DNA of 64,000 nucleotides from NCBI RefSeq assembly GCF_013122565.1, contig NZ_CP053258.1; one strand, written 5' to 3'. How positions within the stretch are numbered: position 1 is the stretch's first letter; each line of letters begins with the position of its first letter. Below are positions 2,345-54,861 of this stretch, piece after piece. The DNA comes from Escherichia coli. GTDB lineage: Bacteria > Pseudomonadota > Gammaproteobacteria > Enterobacterales > Enterobacteriaceae. The notes beneath the pieces are model-generated. The model was not told where the DNA came from. It did not search any database and worked only from the letters and a program-made list of their open reading frames with translations. Position numbers and translations under genes: made by a program.

Positions 2345-4936
2345 ATGCATCAATCTGGTTCTGTTTCTCTTTGTCGTTCCGCAATATCTGTTCTGGTGGC
2401 TACAGCGTTATATTCACCCATAGCATTGGCATCAACAGTTGAGTATGGTGAGACAGTTGATGGTGTTGTCCTGGAAAAAGATATCCAGCTGGTTTATGGG
2501 ACCGCCAATAATACGAAAATCAATCCTGGCGGAGAACAGCATATTAAAGAATTTGGTATAAGTAGTAATACTGAAATTAACGGCGGGTATCAGTACATTG
2601 AAATGAATGGCACCGCAGAATACTCCGTATTAAATGATGGTTATCAAATTGTTCAAATGGGTGGCGCGGCAAACCAGACTACCCTCAATAATGGTGTGCT
2701 ACAGGTTTATGGCGCAGCGAATGATCCCACGATTAAAGGCGGGCGCTTAATCGTTGAAAAAGATGGGATTACCGTCCTTGCCGCTATCGAAAAGGGAGGA
2801 TTACTGGAGGTTAAAGAGGGGGGGTTAGCGATTGCGGTAGATCAGAAAGCCGGCGGTGCTATTAAAACAACCACGCGGGCCATGGAGGTATTCGGAACAA
2901 ACCGTCTCGGTCAGTTCGATATCAAGAATGGTATTGCTAACAATATGCTGTTGGAAAACGGCGGAAGTTTGCGAGTTGAAGAAAATGACTTCGCTTATAA
3001 TACTACTGTAGATAGTGGCGGCTTACTGGAGGTTATGGATGGCGGGACTGCAACTGGCGTTGATAAAAAAGCAGGCGGAAAATTAATTGTCTCAACGAAT
3101 GCGCTGGAAGTGAGTGGTACAAACAGTAAAGGCCAATTTAGTATAAAAGATGGTGTGTCAAAAAATTATGAACTGGACGATGGTTCCGGGCTCATTGTTA
3201 TGGAGGACACGCAGGCCATTGATACTATCCTTGATGAGCATGCCACTATGCAATCGCTGGGAAAGGATACTGGTACGAGAGTGCAGGCAAATGCGGTATA
3301 TGATCTGGGTCGATCAGATCAGAATGGAAGTATCACGTATTCCTCTAAAGCCATCTCTGAAAATATGGTTATCAACAATGGCCGCGCTAATGTCTGGGCA
3401 GGCACAATGGTTAACGTTTCAGTCAGAGGGAATGATGGCATTCTTGAGGTCATGAAGCCGCAAATAAATTATGCACCCGCTATGTTGGTGGGTAGTGTCG
3501 TGGTTTCTGAGGGCGCTTCTTTAAGAACGCATGGTGCCGTGGATACCAGCAAAGCGGATGTTTCGCTCGAAAATAGCTCATGGACCATCATTGCCGATAT
3601 CACTACGACGAACCAAAACACCCGCCTCAATTTAGCCAACCTTGCGATGTCTGGCGCAAATGTGATTATGATGGATGAGCCAGTGACTCGTTCATCTGTG
3701 ACGGCAAGTGCGGAAAATTTCACTACGTTGACCACCAATACCCTGTCGGGAAACGGCAATTTTTATATGCGTACCGATATGGCTAATCATCAGAGCGATC
3801 AGCTCAACGTCACCGGACAGGCAACAGGTGATTTCAAAATATTCGTGACGGACACCGGTGCCAGCCCGGCAGCAGGAGATAGCCTTACACTGGTAACAAC
3901 GGGCGGCGGTGATGCTGCATTTACGTTGGGCAATGCCGGAGGCGTTGTTGATATCGGTACGTATGAATATACCTTGCTGGATAATGGCAATCATAGCTGG
4001 AGTCTGGCAGAGAATCGCGCGCAAATTACCCCTTCAACCACTGATGTGCTAAATATGGCGGCAGCACAACCGCTGGTATTTGATGCAGAACTGGACACCG
4101 TGCGTGAGCGTCTTGGTAGCGTAAAAGGCGTTAGTTACGATACGGCGATGTGGAGTTCGGCAATTAACACCCGCAACAACGTGACCACTGATGCGGGCGC
4201 TGGTTTTGAGCAAACATTGACGGGCCTGACGCTCGGTATCGATAGCCGTTTCTCCCGTGAAGAAAGCAGTACAATTCGCGGCTTGTTCTTTGGTTACTCT
4301 CATTCTGATATTGGTTTTGATCGCGGCGGCAAAGGCAATGTCGATAGCTATACCCTGGGTGCTTATGCCGGTTGGGAGCATCAGAACGGTGCCTATGTTG
4401 ATGGGGTGGTGAAAGTTGACCGTTTTGCCAACACCATCCATGGCAAGATGAGTAATGGGGCAACAGCGTTTGGCGATTACAATAGTAACGGCGCGGGTGC
4501 TCATGTTGAGAGCGGGTTCCGTTGGGTTGACGGATTGTGGAGTGTTAGACCCTATCTGGCCTTTACCGGCTTTACCACAGATGGTCAGGACTACACGTTA
4601 TCAAACGGCATGCGCGCGGACGTGGGAAATACCCGGATATTACGCGCTGAAGCGGGAACGGCGGTAAGCTATCACATGGACCTGCAAAACGGTACGACGC
4701 TGGAACCCTGGCTGAAAGCCGCCGTGCGTCAGGAATACGCCGATTCTAACCAGGTGAAAGTTAATGACGATGGCAAATTTAATAATGATGTGGCTGGAAC
4801 CAGTGGCGTTTATCAGGCTGGGATAAGGTCATCGTTTACCCCGACGTTAAGCGGTCATTTGTCAGTCAGCTATGGCAATGGCGCAGGGGTAGAATCACCG
4901 TGGAATACTCAGGCGGGTGTGGTCTGGTCGTTCTGA
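2345..4936 (+). CDS. yejO: Adhesin-like autotransporter (type Va secretion), apparently intact, 863 aa
   Basis: N-terminal signal peptide, repetitive Gly/Thr/Asn-rich passenger region, C-terminal beta-barrel translocator ending in …AGVVWSF; located next to tRNA-Pro and narP. Confidence 0.8.
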   Translation: MHQSGSVSLCRSAISVLVATALYSPIALASTVEYGETVDGVVLEKDIQLVYGTANNTKINPGGEQHIKEFGISSNTEINGGYQYIEMNGTAEYSVLNDGYQIVQMGGAANQTTLNNGVLQVYGAANDPTIKGGRLIVEKDGITVLAAIEKGGLLEVKEGGLAIAVDQKAGGAIKTTTRAMEVFGTNRLGQFDIKNGIANNMLLENGGSLRVEENDFAYNTTVDSGGLLEVMDGGTATGVDKKAGGKLIVSTNALEVSGTNSKGQFSIKDGVSKNYELDDGSGLIVMEDTQAIDTILDEHATMQSLGKDTGTRVQANAVYDLGRSDQNGSITYSSKAISENMVINNGRANVWAGTMVNVSVRGNDGILEVMKPQINYAPAMLVGSVVVSEGASLRTHGAVDTSKADVSLENSSWTIIADITTTNQNTRLNLANLAMSGANVIMMDEPVTRSSVTASAENFTTLTTNTLSGNGNFYMRTDMANHQSDQLNVTGQATGDFKIFVTDTGASPAAGDSLTLVTTGGGDAAFTLGNAGGVVDIGTYEYTLLDNGNHSWSLAENRAQITPSTTDVLNMAAAQPLVFDAELDTVRERLGSVKGVSYDTAMWSSAINTRNNVTTDAGAGFEQTLTGLTLGIDSRFSREESSTIRGLFFGYSHSDIGFDRGGKGNVDSYTLGAYAGWEHQNGAYVDGVVKVDRFANTIHGKMSNGATAFGDYNSNGAGAHVESGFRWVDGLWSVRPYLAFTGFTTDGQDYTLSNGMRADVGNTRILRAEAGTAVSYHMDLQNGTTLEPWLKAAVRQEYADSNQVKVNDDGKFNNDVAGTSGVYQAGIRSSFTPTLSGHLSVSYGNGAGVESPWNTQAGVVWSF

Positions 4937-45771: not shown

Positions 45772-47241
45772 ATGGTTTCCGAAACTAAAACCACAGAAGC
45801 GCCGGGCTTACGCCGTGAATTAAAGGCGCGTCACCTGACGATGATTGCCATTGGCGGTTCCATCGGTACAGGTCTTTTTGTTGCCTCTGGCGCAACGATT
45901 TCTCAGGCAGGTCCGGGCGGGGCATTGCTCTCGTATATGCTGATTGGCCTGATGGTTTACTTCCTGATGACCAGTCTCGGTGAACTGGCTGCATATATGC
46001 CGGTTTCCGGTTCGTTTGCCACTTATGGTCAGAACTATGTTGAAGAAGGCTTTGGCTTCGCGCTGGGCTGGAACTACTGGTACAACTGGGCGGTGACTAT
46101 CGCCGTTGACCTGGTTGCAGCTCAGCTGGTCATGAGCTGGTGGTTCCCGGATACACCGGGCTGGATCTGGAGTGCGCTGTTCCTCGGCGTTATCTTCCTG
46201 CTGAACTACATCTCAGTTCGTGGCTTTGGTGAAGCGGAATACTGGTTCTCACTGATCAAAGTCACGACAGTTATTGTCTTTATCATCGTTGGCGTGCTGA
46301 TGATTATCGGTATCTTCAAAGGCGCGCAGCCTGCGGGCTGGAGCAACTGGACAATCGGCGAAGCGCCGTTTGCTGGTGGTTTTGCGGCGATGATCGGCGT
46401 AGCTATGATTGTCGGCTTCTCTTTCCAGGGAACCGAGCTGATCGGTATTGCTGCAGGCGAGTCCGAAGATCCGGCGAAAAACATTCCACGCGCGGTACGT
46501 CAGGTGTTCTGGCGAATCCTGTTGTTCTATGTGTTCGCGATCCTGATTATCAGCCTGATTATTCCGTACACCGATCCGAGCCTGCTGCGTAACGATGTTA
46601 AAGACATCAGCGTCAGTCCGTTCACCCTGGTGTTCCAGCACGCGGGTCTGCTCTCTGCGGCGGCGGTGATGAACGCAGTTATTCTGACGGCGGTGCTGTC
46701 AGCAGGTAACTCCGGTATGTATGCGTCTACTCGTATGCTGTACACCCTGGCGTGTGACGGTAAAGCGCCGCGCATTTTCGCTAAACTGTCGCGTGGTGGC
46801 GTGCCGCGTAATGCGCTGTATGCGACGACGGTGATTGCCGGTCTGTGCTTCCTGACCTCCATGTTTGGCAACCAGACGGTATACCTGTGGCTGCTGAACA
46901 CCTCCGGGATGACCGGTTTTATCGCCTGGCTGGGGATTGCCATTAGCCACTATCGCTTCCGTCGCGGTTACGTATTGCAGGGACACGACATTAACGATCT
47001 GCCGTACCGTTCAGGTTTCTTCCCATTGGGGCCGATCTTCGCATTCATTCTGTGTCTGATTATCACTTTGGGCCAGAACTACGAAGCGTTCCTGAAAGAT
47101 ACCATCGACTGGGGCGGCGTAGCGGCAACGTATATTGGTATCCCGCTGTTCCTGATTATTTGGTTCGGCTACAAGCTGATTAAAGGAACTCACTTCGTAC
47201 GTTACAGCGAAATGAAGTTCCCGCAGAACGATAAGAAATAA
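45772..47241 (+). CDS. lysP: Lysine-specific permease (APC family)
   Basis: 489-aa, 12-TM amino-acid permease (…IAIGGSIGTGLFVASG…). Confidence 0.9.
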   Translation: MVSETKTTEAPGLRRELKARHLTMIAIGGSIGTGLFVASGATISQAGPGGALLSYMLIGLMVYFLMTSLGELAAYMPVSGSFATYGQNYVEEGFGFALGWNYWYNWAVTIAVDLVAAQLVMSWWFPDTPGWIWSALFLGVIFLLNYISVRGFGEAEYWFSLIKVTTVIVFIIVGVLMIIGIFKGAQPAGWSNWTIGEAPFAGGFAAMIGVAMIVGFSFQGTELIGIAAGESEDPAKNIPRAVRQVFWRILLFYVFAILIISLIIPYTDPSLLRNDVKDISVSPFTLVFQHAGLLSAAAVMNAVILTAVLSAGNSGMYASTRMLYTLACDGKAPRIFAKLSRGGVPRNALYATTVIAGLCFLTSMFGNQTVYLWLLNTSGMTGFIAWLGIAISHYRFRRGYVLQGHDINDLPYRSGFFPLGPIFAFILCLIITLGQNYEAFLKDTIDWGGVAATYIGIPLFLIIWFGYKLIKGTHFVRYSEMKFPQNDKK

Positions 47242-47262
47242 GTTTCCTCCCTTCCTTGCTAA

Positions 47263-47288
47263 GCCCTCTCAACCGAGAGGGCTTTTTC
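47263..47288 (+). terminator. Intrinsic terminator downstream of lysP
   Basis: Hairpin gccctctc-aacc-gagagggc followed by ttttt. Confidence 0.7.
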
Positions 47289-47333
47289 AATTCCATTTCC
47301 CTGACAAATCATGCGGATATAAAATTTAACATT

Positions 47334-47365
47334 TGGATTGATAATTGTTATCGTTTGCATTATCG
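47334..47365. promoter_or_regulatory. Fur box(es) in the cirA promoter
   Basis: tggattGATAATtGTTATCgtttgCATTATCg resembles overlapping GATAAT/ATTATC hexamers of the Fur consensus, about 170 bp upstream of cirA. Confidence 0.55.
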
Positions 47366-47533
47366 TTACGCCGCAATCAAAAAAGGCTGACAAATCAGAG
47401 GCTGTTCCGGCTTTCTGGGATGATCACCTGCATACAAATAAGTCCACCGCGATGCTGCCGTACGCAAGGGGACGTGAAGAAGATGTGAGCGATAACCCAT
47501 TTTATTTTCGTAGTTACCTCATGGAGATATGGA

Positions 47534-49513
47534 ATGTTTAGGTTGAACCCTTTCGTACGGGTCGGGCTGTGTTTGTCCGCTATTTCTTGTGCATGGCCTG
47601 TGTTAGCGGTCGATGATGATGGCGAAACGATGGTTGTCACTGCATCTTCCGTTGAACAAAACCTTAAAGATGCACCTGCCAGTATCAGCGTCATTACCCA
47701 GGAAGACCTGCAGCGAAAACCGGTACAGAATCTGAAGGATGTCCTCAAAGAAGTGCCTGGCGTACAACTGACGAACGAAGGGGATAACCGTAAGGGCGTT
47801 AGTATTCGTGGTCTGGACAGCAGCTATACCCTGATTCTTGTCGACGGTAAACGCGTTAACTCCCGCAATGCCGTCTTCCGCCACAATGATTTCGATCTGA
47901 ACTGGATCCCGGTCGATTCCATCGAACGTATTGAAGTGGTTCGTGGCCCGATGTCGTCGCTGTACGGTTCCGATGCGCTCGGCGGTGTTGTGAATATCAT
48001 CACCAAAAAAATCGGTCAGAAATGGTCGGGTACCGTTACCGTCGATACCACCATTCAGGAACATCGCGATCGCGGTGATACCTATAACGGTCAGTTCTTT
48101 GCCAGCGGACCATTAATTGACGGTGTGCTGGGAATGAAAGCTTACGGCAGCCTGGCAAAACGTGAAAAGGATGATCCGCAAAACTCAACGACCACCGATA
48201 CTGGAGAAACGCCGCGTATTGAAGGATTCTCCAGCCGCGACGGCAATGTCGAATTTGCCTGGACACCGAATCAAAATCACGATTTTACTGCCGGATACGG
48301 TTTCGACCGTCAGGATCGTGATTCCGACTCGCTGGACAAAAACCGCCTGGAACGCCAGAACTACTCCGTCAGCCATAATGGGCGTTGGGATTACGGCACC
48401 AGCGAACTGAAATACTACGGTGAGAAAGTCGAGAACAAAAACCCTGGCAACAGCAGCCCGATAACTTCCGAAAGCAATACGGTCGACGGCAAATACACGT
48501 TGCCGCTGACGGCGATTAATCAGTTTCTCACAGTTGGCGGTGAATGGCGTCACGACAAACTTAGCGATGCGGTGAACCTGACCGGGGGAACCAGCTCCAA
48601 AACGTCTGCCAGCCAGTACGCGCTGTTTGTGGAAGATGAATGGCGGATCTTCGAGCCGCTGGCGCTGACGACCGGCGTACGTATGGACGATCATGAAACC
48701 TACGGTGAACACTGGAGTCCGCGTGCCTACCTGGTTTATAACGCCACCGACACCGTAACGGTGAAAGGGGGCTGGGCGACGGCATTTAAAGCGCCTTCTC
48801 TGTTGCAACTTAGCCCTGACTGGACGAGCAATTCCTGCCGTGGCGCATGTAAGATTGTGGGTAGCCCGGATCTGAAACCAGAAACCAGCGAAAGTTGGGA
48901 GCTGGGGCTTTACTATATGGGTGAAGAAGGCTGGCTGGAAGGGGTTGAATCCAGCGTTACCGTTTTCCGTAACGATGTGAAAGATCGCATCAGCATCAGC
49001 CGTACGTCTGACGTCAATGCTGCACCGGGCTACCAAAACTTTGTCGGTTTTACAGCGGGCGGTGTGCCGGTATTCAGCTACTACAACGTTAACAAAGCAC
49101 GTATTCAGGGCGTGGAAACCGAACTGAAAATTCCGTTCAACGATGAATGGAAACTGTCACTCAACTACACCTACAACGATGGTCGTGATGTCAGCAACGG
49201 CGAAAATAAACCGCTATCCGATCTGCCGTTCCATACTGCTAACGGTACGCTGGACTGGAAACCGCTGGCGCTGGAAGACTGGTCATTCTATGTTTCTGGT
49301 CACTATACCGGGCAGAAACGAGCCGACAGCGCGACGGCTAAAACACCGGGCGGTTATACCATCTGGAATACCGGCGCGGCCTGGCAGGTGACCAAAGATG
49401 TCAAACTGCGCGCAGGCGTGCTGAACCTTGGCGACAAGGATCTCAGTCGTGACGACTACAGCTATAACGAAGACGGACGTCGTTACTTTATGGCAGTGGA
49501 TTATCGCTTCTGA
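47534..49513 (+). CDS. cirA: TonB-dependent outer-membrane receptor CirA (catecholate siderophore/colicin Ia receptor)
   Basis: 659-aa ORF with signal peptide, TonB box (ETMVVTAS), plug and beta-barrel ending in the terminal aromatic residue (…AVDYRF). Confidence 0.9.
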
Positions 49514-49571: not shown

Positions 49572-50894
49572 TTATAACCGATGAAATTTTGCCAGTAAGG
49601 CCAGTGAAAATGTTGTCAGCAAAATGGTAATGACGGCGTAAATATACACGCCTGACCATTCCCAACTGTTTTTCACCATAATAACTGGAAGCCCTGCCAT
49701 TGCCGCGCCTACATAACTAAATAAGCCCCTGAACCCAGTAATGGAACCTGCCGCATCTTTATGCGTAACATCAAGACATCCGACAGCGAATAACATATGT
49801 GGTCCATATAATGCAAACCCCATGATTGTAAAAAGAATAGCCGTTAATGTGTAGGAGACGTCCTGCACCAGCGGCACGAGAACGATGCAAATACATAAGG
49901 CGATGGCAAACATTAATCCGGTCATCCAGCGGTTACTTTTAAACATAAAATCGGACAAGTACCCCGCCAGTAATCCCCCTGCAAGTCCACCTGCTTCAAA
50001 CCAGGATATAATGGAGTTCGCTTTAATCAGGCTCCAGTTATGAACCTGAGAATAATAAATTTGTGGCCAGTCATTGAGGATGGTGCGTGCAATATAGACT
50101 GACATATCCCCGAGGATAATCAGCCAAACTAATGGGTTGGTAAGAATATATTTAATGAAAATTTGCCAAAAACTCAGATCTACCGGGCTTGCTTTAACTT
50201 GTGCAAGTTCTGTCGGGTCGTTGCGCCACTTACCTACGTTAGGCAAACCGAGTGTGCCAGGACGATCTTTAATCGTAAACAGGGCAACAACCCCCATAAT
50301 CAGCGATATTACACCCGGAACATAAAAGCCCATTTTCCAGCTGCCACTAAAAGCAATGGCAAAGCTTGTCAGGAGAGGCGCAAGACTACCGCCAATATTA
50401 TGCGCCGCTTCAACAACTGCCCACCAGCGCCCGCGTTCATTTTTAGAAAACCACGAGGCCATAATTTTTGCCATCGGCGGAAAACTGGTACCCTGAAGAA
50501 TAGCATTAAGGCTATACAGGATATAGAACGCAGCAACGCTGTCTGAAAAACCGAAAAGAATGTTAACAATACCGACGCCAATAAGTACGGGGCCGGTCAT
50601 TGCGCGTGGGTTAATTTTATCGACTAACATGCCCCCTACAAACTTCATGGAGCCATAAAGAATGTAAAAGACCGACGACATGATAGCGAAATCTTGTGCG
50701 GTTAATGACGTATCCGTCAACATCGCCGGCATGGCCGCAGAGAAATTCTTGCGGGTTAAATAAAATACGGCATAAGAGATAAATACAGAGGTGATGATTT
50801 CAATACGAAATTTTTTATAAGTATGATCAACTTCTTCTTTCGGTTTGACCACTGGTTGGTCGGCCTGGCTGAAAATAAATTTTTTCAAGCTCAT
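49572..50894 (-). CDS. MFS organophosphate:phosphate antiporter (GlpT/UhpT/PgtP family); accessory, substrate unknown (phosphoserine proposed)
   Basis: 440-aa, 12-TM ORF; N-terminal region (…YRRLRWQI… / YLVRKNFALAMP in GlpT versus …YKKFRIEI… / YLTRKNFSAAMP here) and overall architecture match the OPA family; AT-rich. Confidence 0.8.
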   Translation of the reverse strand: MSLKKFIFSQADQPVVKPKEEVDHTYKKFRIEIITSVFISYAVFYLTRKNFSAAMPAMLTDTSLTAQDFAIMSSVFYILYGSMKFVGGMLVDKINPRAMTGPVLIGVGIVNILFGFSDSVAAFYILYSLNAILQGTSFPPMAKIMASWFSKNERGRWWAVVEAAHNIGGSLAPLLTSFAIAFSGSWKMGFYVPGVISLIMGVVALFTIKDRPGTLGLPNVGKWRNDPTELAQVKASPVDLSFWQIFIKYILTNPLVWLIILGDMSVYIARTILNDWPQIYYSQVHNWSLIKANSIISWFEAGGLAGGLLAGYLSDFMFKSNRWMTGLMFAIALCICIVLVPLVQDVSYTLTAILFTIMGFALYGPHMLFAVGCLDVTHKDAAGSITGFRGLFSYVGAAMAGLPVIMVKNSWEWSGVYIYAVITILLTTFSLALLAKFHRL

Positions 50895-50926: not shown

Positions 50927-51814
50927 CTATAGTTTTTCTTCTATAAAAAAGAGAAGCGACTCGAAACCATTAAAATTAATCTGGTTAGTAACTTTTTCCC
51001 GGGTTTTAGGTTTTGCTTTCCATGCCACGCCATACCCGGCATGCAGAAGCATAGGAATATCATTAGCGCCATCTCCGCAGGCAATGATGTTTTCACGACA
51101 AATAGATAACTCTGTCGCCAAATTTATCAGGGTTTGCTTTTTCTTTTCTGCATTCATAATGGGAAAGGTAATTTTGTCAGTTAATAGATCTTCCTGAATG
51201 CGTACAGAGTTAGAAAATGCAAAATCAAGTTGATATTTTTCTTTTAATCTCTCAGTAAAAATATCTAAACCGCCGGATATAATTGCCGTCTTGAATCCTT
51301 TTTCTTTAAGAATGGGAAGAATAGTTTTAAGACCTGGTGAAAGGGTCATCTGTTCACAAACCTGATGCAATATATCTTTATGTGTTCCTTTAAGCATGCC
51401 AATTCGGCGGGTAAAACTGGTATCAAAATCGATTTTTCCTTCCATCGCTTCACGGGTCAGCGCGGTGATTTTTTCAGAGATCCCGAGTCTACGGGCTATT
51501 TCATCGACGCCTTCCTCTTCAACAAAGGTGGAATCCATATCAAAGGCAATAATTCCCTCAGCCGGTAAGTCCGTAGGTTTGCGGAAAAAATCAAAATGAT
51601 GATGATCAGCACGGTGACGTAAACCAGCATAAAAATCAGGATTGGTTACATCATCTGTTAATACTAGCTTTAGATACTCTTTATTTATTTGCTCACTGTA
51701 ATTCGTTGTTAACGAAAACACCGAGGATGAAACCTTTAAATGTTGCAAATAATGTTCCAGACATTTTTTGGTGATGTCGATGCCTGTTGGCGACAAGAAA
51801 TAAATAATCGTCAT
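50927..51814 (-). CDS. HAD-superfamily phosphoserine phosphatase paralog (SerB-like)
   Basis: 295-aa ORF with HAD motif I (FDMDST), motif III Lys and motif IV (GDGANDIPML); strongly resembles E. coli SerB (…DMDSTAI…, …GDGANDLPMI…AKPK…). Confidence 0.8.
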   Translation of the reverse strand: MTIIYFLSPTGIDITKKCLEHYLQHLKVSSSVFSLTTNYSEQINKEYLKLVLTDDVTNPDFYAGLRHRADHHHFDFFRKPTDLPAEGIIAFDMDSTFVEEEGVDEIARRLGISEKITALTREAMEGKIDFDTSFTRRIGMLKGTHKDILHQVCEQMTLSPGLKTILPILKEKGFKTAIISGGLDIFTERLKEKYQLDFAFSNSVRIQEDLLTDKITFPIMNAEKKKQTLINLATELSICRENIIACGDGANDIPMLLHAGYGVAWKAKPKTREKVTNQINFNGFESLLFFIEEKL

Positions 51815-52023
51815 TTACCGCTCCTTTTTATCTGCAATGATTATAATAAGGTTTCGTAGCGGCTGATGTATCTAACAATCACAGTTGTGAATGTTAAATA
51901 AAAGATAAAAAAGTGCTTTTTTTGATACCCTGAAATAATAAGATACTAAAAGTACCATTTTTGATACCTTTGCCAGGATATAACGAATAACGAGTTTCAA
52001 CGTTGAAGGAATCATTTACAAAA

Positions 52024-53376
52024 ATGGAAAGCTGCTTAGATATATTCAAGATAGTTATAGGTCCATCCAGTTCCCGCACTGTCGGGCCAATGCGTGCGGC
52101 TTATAATTTTGTCTCACAATTGAAACAGCGAGAAATGTTACCTTTGTTGCGGAAAATTGATGTCGAACTTTATGGCGCACTGTCATTAAGCCGCAAGTGC
52201 CATAATGTTGATGTGGCGATTTATCTCGGTTTGCAAGGTCACTTACCTGACAGCGTTGATATCCGCATGGAAATGTCCGCCATCAGGCGTGCGGAAACTG
52301 AGGCGACGCTGGAAGTTATGCCTGGTGTCAACGTTGGTGTAGCCATTATTTCTAATCCACAGGCGCACCCGGGGCATCCTTATGCGATGACATTTCGTGC
52401 CAGAGATGACTGGTTTACGCTTTATGAAGAAACCTGCTTTTCTGTCGGCGACGGTCAGGTTCAAAAAGCGGGAGAGGCGATGATTCCCTCCTCAGTCACT
52501 CCACATCCTTTTGAATTCCAGAACGCAAACGAATTATTAAAACTTTGTCAGCAAAACGGATTATCTGTTGCGGCATTAATGATGAAAAACGAACTACACT
52601 GCCAGACTTCTGATTTTTTGCATGACGATCTCAATAAAAAATGGGAAGTAATGAAGGATGCGGTCTATCGCGGGATGCATACAGAGGGATTACTTCCTGG
52701 TCCGTATCAGGTTAACCGTCGTGCCTGTGCTTTATATAAATCGTTGCAGGCAAAGGGGTTTACCAATGACTTCCTGACTACGATCAATTGGGTCAATACT
52801 TTTGCCATTGCGGTGAGCGAAGAAAATGCTGCAGGTGGACGCGTCGTGACAGCACCCACCAACGGCGCGAGCGGTATTATCCCGGCCGTACTGTGTTGGT
52901 ATGACAAATTCATTCACGAGCTTGATACTTACTCCGTTACCCGCTTTTTTCTGACCGCCGGTGCCATAGCCATTCTGTTCAAAAAAAATGCCTCTATTCT
53001 GGGGTCTGAAGTTGGATGTCAGGGGGAAATAGGCGTTGCCAGTTCAATGGCGGCAGCAGGATTAGCAGAACTTATGGGCGGGTCAGTGACTCAGGTACTC
53101 AGCGCGGCAGAAATTGCGATGGAACACCATTTAGGTTTGACCTGTGATCCAGTTGGCGGGCAGGTACAAATTCCTTGTATTGAACGAAATGCTATTTCAG
53201 CCGTGAAAGCTATCAACGCAACGACGATGGCTTTGAGTCGCATAAGCGAGCCGTGCATTACGCTGGATGAGATAATTTCCGCGATGTATGAAACCGGAAA
53301 GGATATGAGCGCTAAATACCGGGAAACTTATCATGGCTGTCTTAGCAAATTGCAGCCAAGAAAAAAGGACGCGTAA
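52024..53376 (+). CDS. L-serine dehydratase paralog (SdaA/SdaB family, Fe-S dependent)
   Basis: About 450 aa; N-terminal IGPSSS(R/H)TVGPM motif, central …[23 protein letters not shown]… and C-terminal …[19 protein letters not shown]… all near-identical to E. coli SdaA; start set at the ATG following an AAGGA ribosome-binding site (the ORF track begins 21 nt upstream at TTG). Confidence 0.8.
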
Positions 53377-54637: not shown

Positions 54638-54861
54638 TCATCATACCGTTTATTCAATGTGCTGTGAGTAACTTTCACTTCCGTATTTGCATAACGATGT
54701 TTTAACATCTGCTGATGAAAGGCAGCGGCAATTACAATAATTATCGCTGTGAATACTGGATTATGTGCGCCGCCTCACGCACAATAATCAGGCTGTAAAT
54801 CAGCTTAATAACTTTGCCCCCACGCAGGGCGGAGGCGTCACACCTGCAGGAGAAATCATAA

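Follow-up and report, generated by a model that had tools for sequence, protein, structure and literature searches.

Upstream of cirA in Escherichia coli lies a cluster of overlapping AT-rich hexamers, which raises the question of whether it is the iron-responsive Fur operator of this gene or merely resembles one. Within the stretch of DNA analysed here (64,000 nucleotides, the window), a re-reading of the letters gave tggattgataattgttatcgtttgcattatcg at 47334-47365, the same sequence as in the initial annotation, with GATAAT at 47340-47345, GTTATC at 47347-47352 and CATTATC at 47358-47364. That annotation had proposed a Fur-box-like site in the cirA promoter, and the proposal is confirmed by a weight-matrix scan, a published DNase I footprint and a ChIP-exo peak, the sequence being identical to that of K-12. 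We conclude, with a probability of about 0.97, that the site is the operator through which Fur acts on the E. coli cirA (cir) promoter, with repression, probably of the occlusion type, when iron is sufficient.

The window is part of the E. coli chromosome and carries the gene order yeiE-lysP-cirA. The lysP reading frame occupies 45772-47241 on the plus strand, its stop codon ending at 47241, and the regulated gene, cirA, occupies 47534-49513 on the same strand. The cirA product has 659 residues and is 98% identical to K-12 CirA, and RefSeq names the gene cirA in DNA that is identical or nearly so. Of 5426 complete E. coli genomes, 5425 contain a match to the 401 bases surrounding the site, with identities of 99% or above in nearly every case, and the matching genomes name the flanking genes lysP and cirA; the annotation of the window as the E. 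coli lysP-cirA region is sound. Compared with K-12 MG1655, the lysP-cirA spacer carries a single indel and a single substitution (about 47434-47436), both in the leader and well clear of the Fur site, and is otherwise identical. The interval ends 169 nt before the cirA ATG and the core site is centred 188 nt before it, and the earlier description of the site as about 170 bp upstream of the start was a fair one. Between lysP and the site, a terminator scan found the intrinsic terminator of lysP (plus strand, 47261-47284; a 10-pair stem and then a T run), which separates the cirA promoter from upstream transcription. Rfam searches gave sub-threshold matches alone, on this terminator, and none on the operator or the leader.

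A high-scoring Fur motif upstream of cirA

Fur recognition was scored with symmetric matrices of 19 columns, trained by expectation-maximisation on 14 K-12 Fur regions confirmed by footprinting or gel shift. These were fepA-fes, fepB, entC, fepD-entS, fur, tonB and sodA, together with fecA, fecI, fhuF (two sites), ryhB, fhuA and exbB. Their coordinates, as given by Chen et al., 2007 (PMC2189734), were carried over to NC_000913.3 and verified by the positions of gene starts. The cir region was left out of the training set, so that the scan is free of circularity. The top score of the 64-kb window, 21.2 bits, fell on 47337-47355 (ATTGATAATTGTTATCGTT, centre 47346), and the matrix scan that had been suggested as a check is therefore strongly positive. 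The second-best score in the window, 11.8 bits, is centred on 47352, 6 bp downstream of the core, and the best score outside cirA is 11.3 bits. Known Fur sites have a leave-one-out median of 17.9 bits, and the cirA site thus scores higher than is typical of them. From 47300 to 47400 the matrix is positive at four centres only, 47340, 47346, 47352 and 47358 (8.1, 21.2, 11.8 and 1.6 bits, respectively), in strict 6-bp phase, forming a cluster of overlapping sites. A matrix built in the classic register gave 14.6 bits at 47334-47352 and 12.5 bits at 47340-47358; it detects the same site 3 bp out of register and was dropped, the 7-1-7 register being preferred because it agrees with the earlier information-theory model (Chen et al., 2007).

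A score of this height is rarely produced by base composition. It was reached by 1 of 300 locally permuted windows and by none of 5000 permutations of the 292-nt lysP-cirA spacer; 5000 permutations of the AT-rich promoter stretch (81 nt) reached it once, and the analytic expectation is 0.0027 such matches per 64 kb. A chance origin of the motif is very unlikely, and the absence of a significant Fur score, named beforehand as the result that would speak against the site, was not what we found. The next-best matrix matches, at 10-13 bits, lie at 54730-54748, at 51800-51848 and at 3980-3998; their positions suggest that the first falls between yeiG and folE and the second in the divergent spacer of an insertion described below. 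They are not regarded as sites, because 213 of 300 permuted windows reach 11.8 bits.

Consensus patterns gave a more divided picture. The classic 19-mer GATAATGATAATCATTATC has no match with three or fewer mismatches in the 64-kb window, and its best registers at the site, 47334-47352 and 47340-47358, agree at 13 of 19 bases by our own count. The validated tonB and exbB sites, counted from their sequences, agree with it at 12 of 19, and the 19-mer is therefore too strict to exclude membership; closeness to it is a historical criterion for a Fur box and not a strictly defining one. The 7-1-7 pattern TGATAATNATTATCA, allowed up to two mismatches, has a single match in 64 kb (0.26 expected by chance), at 47339-47353, where it carries two mismatches. 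Together, the computable features that define a Fur operator are all present at this site, closeness to the classic 19-mer alone being not clearly so.

Operator and promoter architecture

The features that need experiments are documented in the literature for the identical sequence. Table 3 of Chen et al., 2007 (PMC2189734), citing Griggs and Konisky, 1989, lists a cir DNase I footprint at NC_000913.2 2244957-2244999, coordinates that are thus second-hand; the 43-bp string, TAACATTTGGATTGATAATTGTTATCGTTTGCATTATCGTTAC, matches the window exactly at 47327-47369. The same study predicted its strongest cir site at 2244980 (20.7 bits, position -189) and counted three walkers across 31 bp; in the window, position -189 is 47346, the centre of the core box. 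In iron-replete MG1655, the Fur ChIP-exo peak P67, assigned to cirA, covers 2244963-2244995 (Gao et al., 2023, PMC10164565, supplementary file 3), which is 47331-47363 in the window. The interval 47334-47365 lies wholly within the footprint as tabulated and nearly coincides with P67, so that the suggested comparison with published cirA footprints comes out in favour of the site.

The published regulation of cirA points the same way. The core Fur regulon of nine E. coli strains includes cirA, for which deletion of fur gives a log2 change of 2.55-9.40 (Gao et al., 2023, PMC10164565), and the statement that cirA is Fur-repressed is thereby borne out by the literature on the identical K-12 sequence. 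ChIP has also shown Fur bound upstream of cirA, and cirA RNA is raised by RyhB (Beauchene et al., 2015, PMC4676285); furthermore, the chelator DTPA induces a luc reporter driven by the cirA promoter (Nedialkova et al., 2014, PMC3879352). Our RNA.duplexfold prediction for RyhB against the cirA leader was uninformative, giving a single sprawling duplex that 16 of 300 shuffles matched or beat.

A second iron-replete ChIP-exo peak for cirA, P68, has been reported at NC_000913.2 2245077-2245104 (Gao et al., 2023, PMC10164565). It maps to 47222-47249, at the 3′ end of lysP and about 100 bp upstream of the operator, and no Fur motif was found within it, the best matrix score there being below 0 bits. 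A peak with no Fur motif could mark Fur spreading or looping, or cross-linking through another protein, although we consider it distinctly unlikely that P68 is a real second contact of this kind rather than an artefact. If the contact were real, control of cirA would draw on more DNA than the classical operator of 43 bp.

Within the footprint, the core Fur box at 47337-47355 encloses the inner inverted repeat TGATAAT-T-GTTATCG (47339-47353), the only 7-1-7 match with two or fewer mismatches. A secondary site at 47343-47361 (centre 47352) lies in phase 6 bp downstream of the core centre, and a weak one at 47331-47349 (centre 47340) lies in phase 6 bp upstream.

A consensus scan of the same stretch predicted two sigma-70-like promoters on the plus strand, 12 bp apart, their placement resting on consensus matches and on conservation. 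One, at 47338-47366, consists of the -35 hexamer TTGATA (47338-47343), a 17-nt spacer and the -10 hexamer TATCGT (47361-47366). The other, at 47326-47354, consists of the -35 hexamer TTAACA (47326-47331), a 17-nt spacer and the TG-extended -10 hexamer TATCGT (47349-47354). Both hexamer pairs fall within 47326-47366, and the -35 hexamer TTGATA belongs to the strongest Fur half-site. Transcription would be predicted to start near 47373 from the TTGATA promoter and near 47361 from the TTAACA promoter. Griggs and Konisky reportedly described two tandem cir promoters, and the two predicted promoters fit this description. The Fur motif thus overlaps the predicted promoter of an iron-acquisition gene, and the presence of two sigma-70-like promoters inside the operator fits repression by occlusion of RNA polymerase.

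The closest known system is the K-12 cir operator itself, which is the same locus and is identical to the window across operator and promoter; the footprint (as tabulated), the ChIP-exo peak and the information-theory site all fall on the bases considered here, and no difference was found in the operator (Griggs and Konisky, 1989; Chen et al., 2007, PMC2189734; Gao et al., 2023, PMC10164565). The operators of fepA-fes, fhuA, fecA, entC, fhuF and ryhB share with it the 7-1-7 or 19-bp AT-rich inverted repeat, the clusters of sites spaced by 6 bp and the overlap with a promoter. The cirA core differs from the other E. coli Fur operators in having T-GTT for C-ATT at two positions flanking the centre, and the cirA operator differs from them in spanning two tandem predicted promoters and in lying unusually far (about 190 nt) from the start codon, a distance that reflects the long leader.

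The differences between the window and K-12 are the indel and substitution in the leader, a CirA segment shorter by four residues and a 4.3-kb insertion downstream of cirA. CirA has 659 residues here and 663 in K-12; one short segment, at residues 507-510 in the window (about 49052-49063), differs from the FVGFETGANGRRIPVF of K-12, and the remainder is 98% identical. We would guess that this segment is a surface loop of the colicin and phage receptor. In K-12, cirA is followed immediately by yeiG; in the window the insertion, of about 4.3 kb, takes this place, from 49514 to about 53770. Its genes are those for an MFS transporter (49572-50894, minus strand), a SerB-like phosphoserine phosphatase (50927-51814, minus strand), an L-serine ammonia-lyase-like protein (52003-53376, plus strand) and a small helix-turn-helix protein. 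Most of the insertion occurs in only 86 of 5426 complete E. coli genomes, at about 97.6% identity, and strain UTME-7 has both an annotated 659-residue CirA and the same downstream insertion.

Conservation of the cirA box in Enterobacterales

Conservation was followed over 80 cirA loci of Enterobacterales, one genome per species, with protein identities of 68-98%. In 65 of the 80 loci the best Fur score within 400 nt upstream of cirA is at least 16.7 bits, the median over all 80 being 21.2 bits, and in those 65 no other site of the roughly 5-kb locus scores higher than the upstream box. The core ATTGATAAT is present in nearly all of the 65 proximal boxes. Across genera, the box lies 94-390 nt from the ATG (94-215 nt when a single locus is set aside), which indicates that the box travels with the promoter and not with the coding sequence.

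When 66 distinct orthologous promoter sequences were aligned with the box as anchor, mean information was 1.29 bits per column inside 47327-47369, compared with 0.36 and 0.21 in the flanks. The -35 hexamer TTGATA is found in 65 of the 66 sequences and a -10 hexamer reading TATCGT, TATCAT or TATGGT in 58; the upstream -35 hexamer TTAACA is kept in 34. Among the offset sites, the one at +6 scores at least 8 bits in 34 of the 66 and the one at -6 in 19. Among the 5426 complete E. coli genomes, 4733 carry the 57-bp promoter core at an identity of 99% or more. The leader is weakly conserved, many genera having GGATGAAGCC soon after the promoter where E. coli has GGCTGACAAATCAGAGGCTG.

In fifteen of the 80 loci, the 400 nt before cirA contain no Fur box of 16.7 bits or more, and in several of these cirA stands after other iron-transport genes. 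The fifteen comprise six from Rahnella and Pantoea (L085-L088, L090 and L091), two from Cedecea (L059 and L080) and L061, L062, L066, L073, L076, L078 and L079. Five of the six Rahnella and Pantoea loci (L085, L086, L088, L090 and L091) have a box of 17-26 bits about 1275 nt upstream, and in L085, the one locus examined, this distal box precedes a gene for a 383-residue periplasmic binding protein, itself 5′ of cirA. The sixth, L087 from Rahnella inusitata, offers nothing better than a 12.6-bit site at -706. In Cedecea, ABC-transporter genes precede cirA on the same strand. Relocation of the operator to the head of an operon is the likely explanation for the loci that lack a proximal box.

One locus of the set, L034 (CACSKA010000001.1), comes from an assembly titled 'Chryseobacterium sp. 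18061'. It holds a cirA locus of enterobacterial type, with a protein 81% identical, and its core box, ATTGATAATTGTTATCATT, is shared with Citrobacter, Pluralibacter and further enterobacterial loci among the 80; mislabelling or contamination of the assembly is probable.

Iron repression of cirA and its alternatives

The arrangement of sites and promoters suggests how repression may work. Under sufficient iron, dimers of Fe2+-Fur would occupy the strong core site ATTGATAATTGTTATCGTT centred on 47346 and would extend onto the weaker sites 6 bp to either side, covering about 43 bp (47327-47369). The covered stretch would hold the -35 and -10 hexamers of both overlapping sigma-70 promoters, so that bound Fur would exclude RNA polymerase and cirA would be silent. 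When iron is scarce, Fur would be released and cirA transcribed with a leader of about 160-175 nt. We infer from this geometry that classical occlusion is the most likely mechanism; Fur binding itself and derepression in fur mutants are taken from the literature.

Alternatively, the AT-rich hexamers could serve the cirA promoters as -35 and -10 elements and nothing more, with an incidental resemblance to a Fur box. TTGATA and TATCGT are indeed promoter-like and lie inside the motif, and the region is 67% A+T; however, the single permutation in 5000 of the 81-nt AT-rich stretch that reached 21.2 bits shows how seldom such composition yields this score. Furthermore, the invariant block, ATTGATAAT followed by TTATC, reaches past the promoter hexamers, and the tabulated footprint and the ChIP-exo peak lie on the same bases, Fur binding in vitro having been published. 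We therefore hold it highly improbable that these are promoter elements and no more. That another regulator, such as Zur or a different protein binding AT-rich DNA, uses the site instead of Fur seems more improbable still. The boxes of the Fur family are all AT-rich inverted repeats, and cAMP-CRP is a further reported input on cir. Yet the Zur-box consensus has no match with three or fewer mismatches anywhere in the window, the matrix trained on Fur sites only scores the site above the median of known ones, and the ChIP-exo experiment was specific for Fur; additional co-regulators would not contradict a role of Fur.

The probability that the motif is a chance occurrence devoid of function appears negligible. 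What speaks for chance is the weak match to the classic 19-mer and nothing else, and against it stand the permutation and analytic statistics for 21.2 bits, the conservation of a proximal site in 65 of 80 species, the confinement of the conservation island to the footprint and the published Fur binding data. We therefore retain the reading of the site as the Fur operator of cirA.

This operator is already known, and what is described here is ordinary published biology; the initial annotation was correct in presenting it as an internal control, given the footprint and ChIP-exo data on the identical K-12 sequence. Its value is that of a positive control, in which a mapped regulatory site was found from raw sequence to within a few bases. 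It also bears on how such sites are sought: if matched strictly to the classic 19-mer 'iron box', this true site would be rejected, whereas it is easily found with a weight matrix or the 7-1-7 pattern. Colicins Ia and Ib and catecholate siderophores have CirA as their receptor, and the control of cirA by iron is therefore physiologically important.
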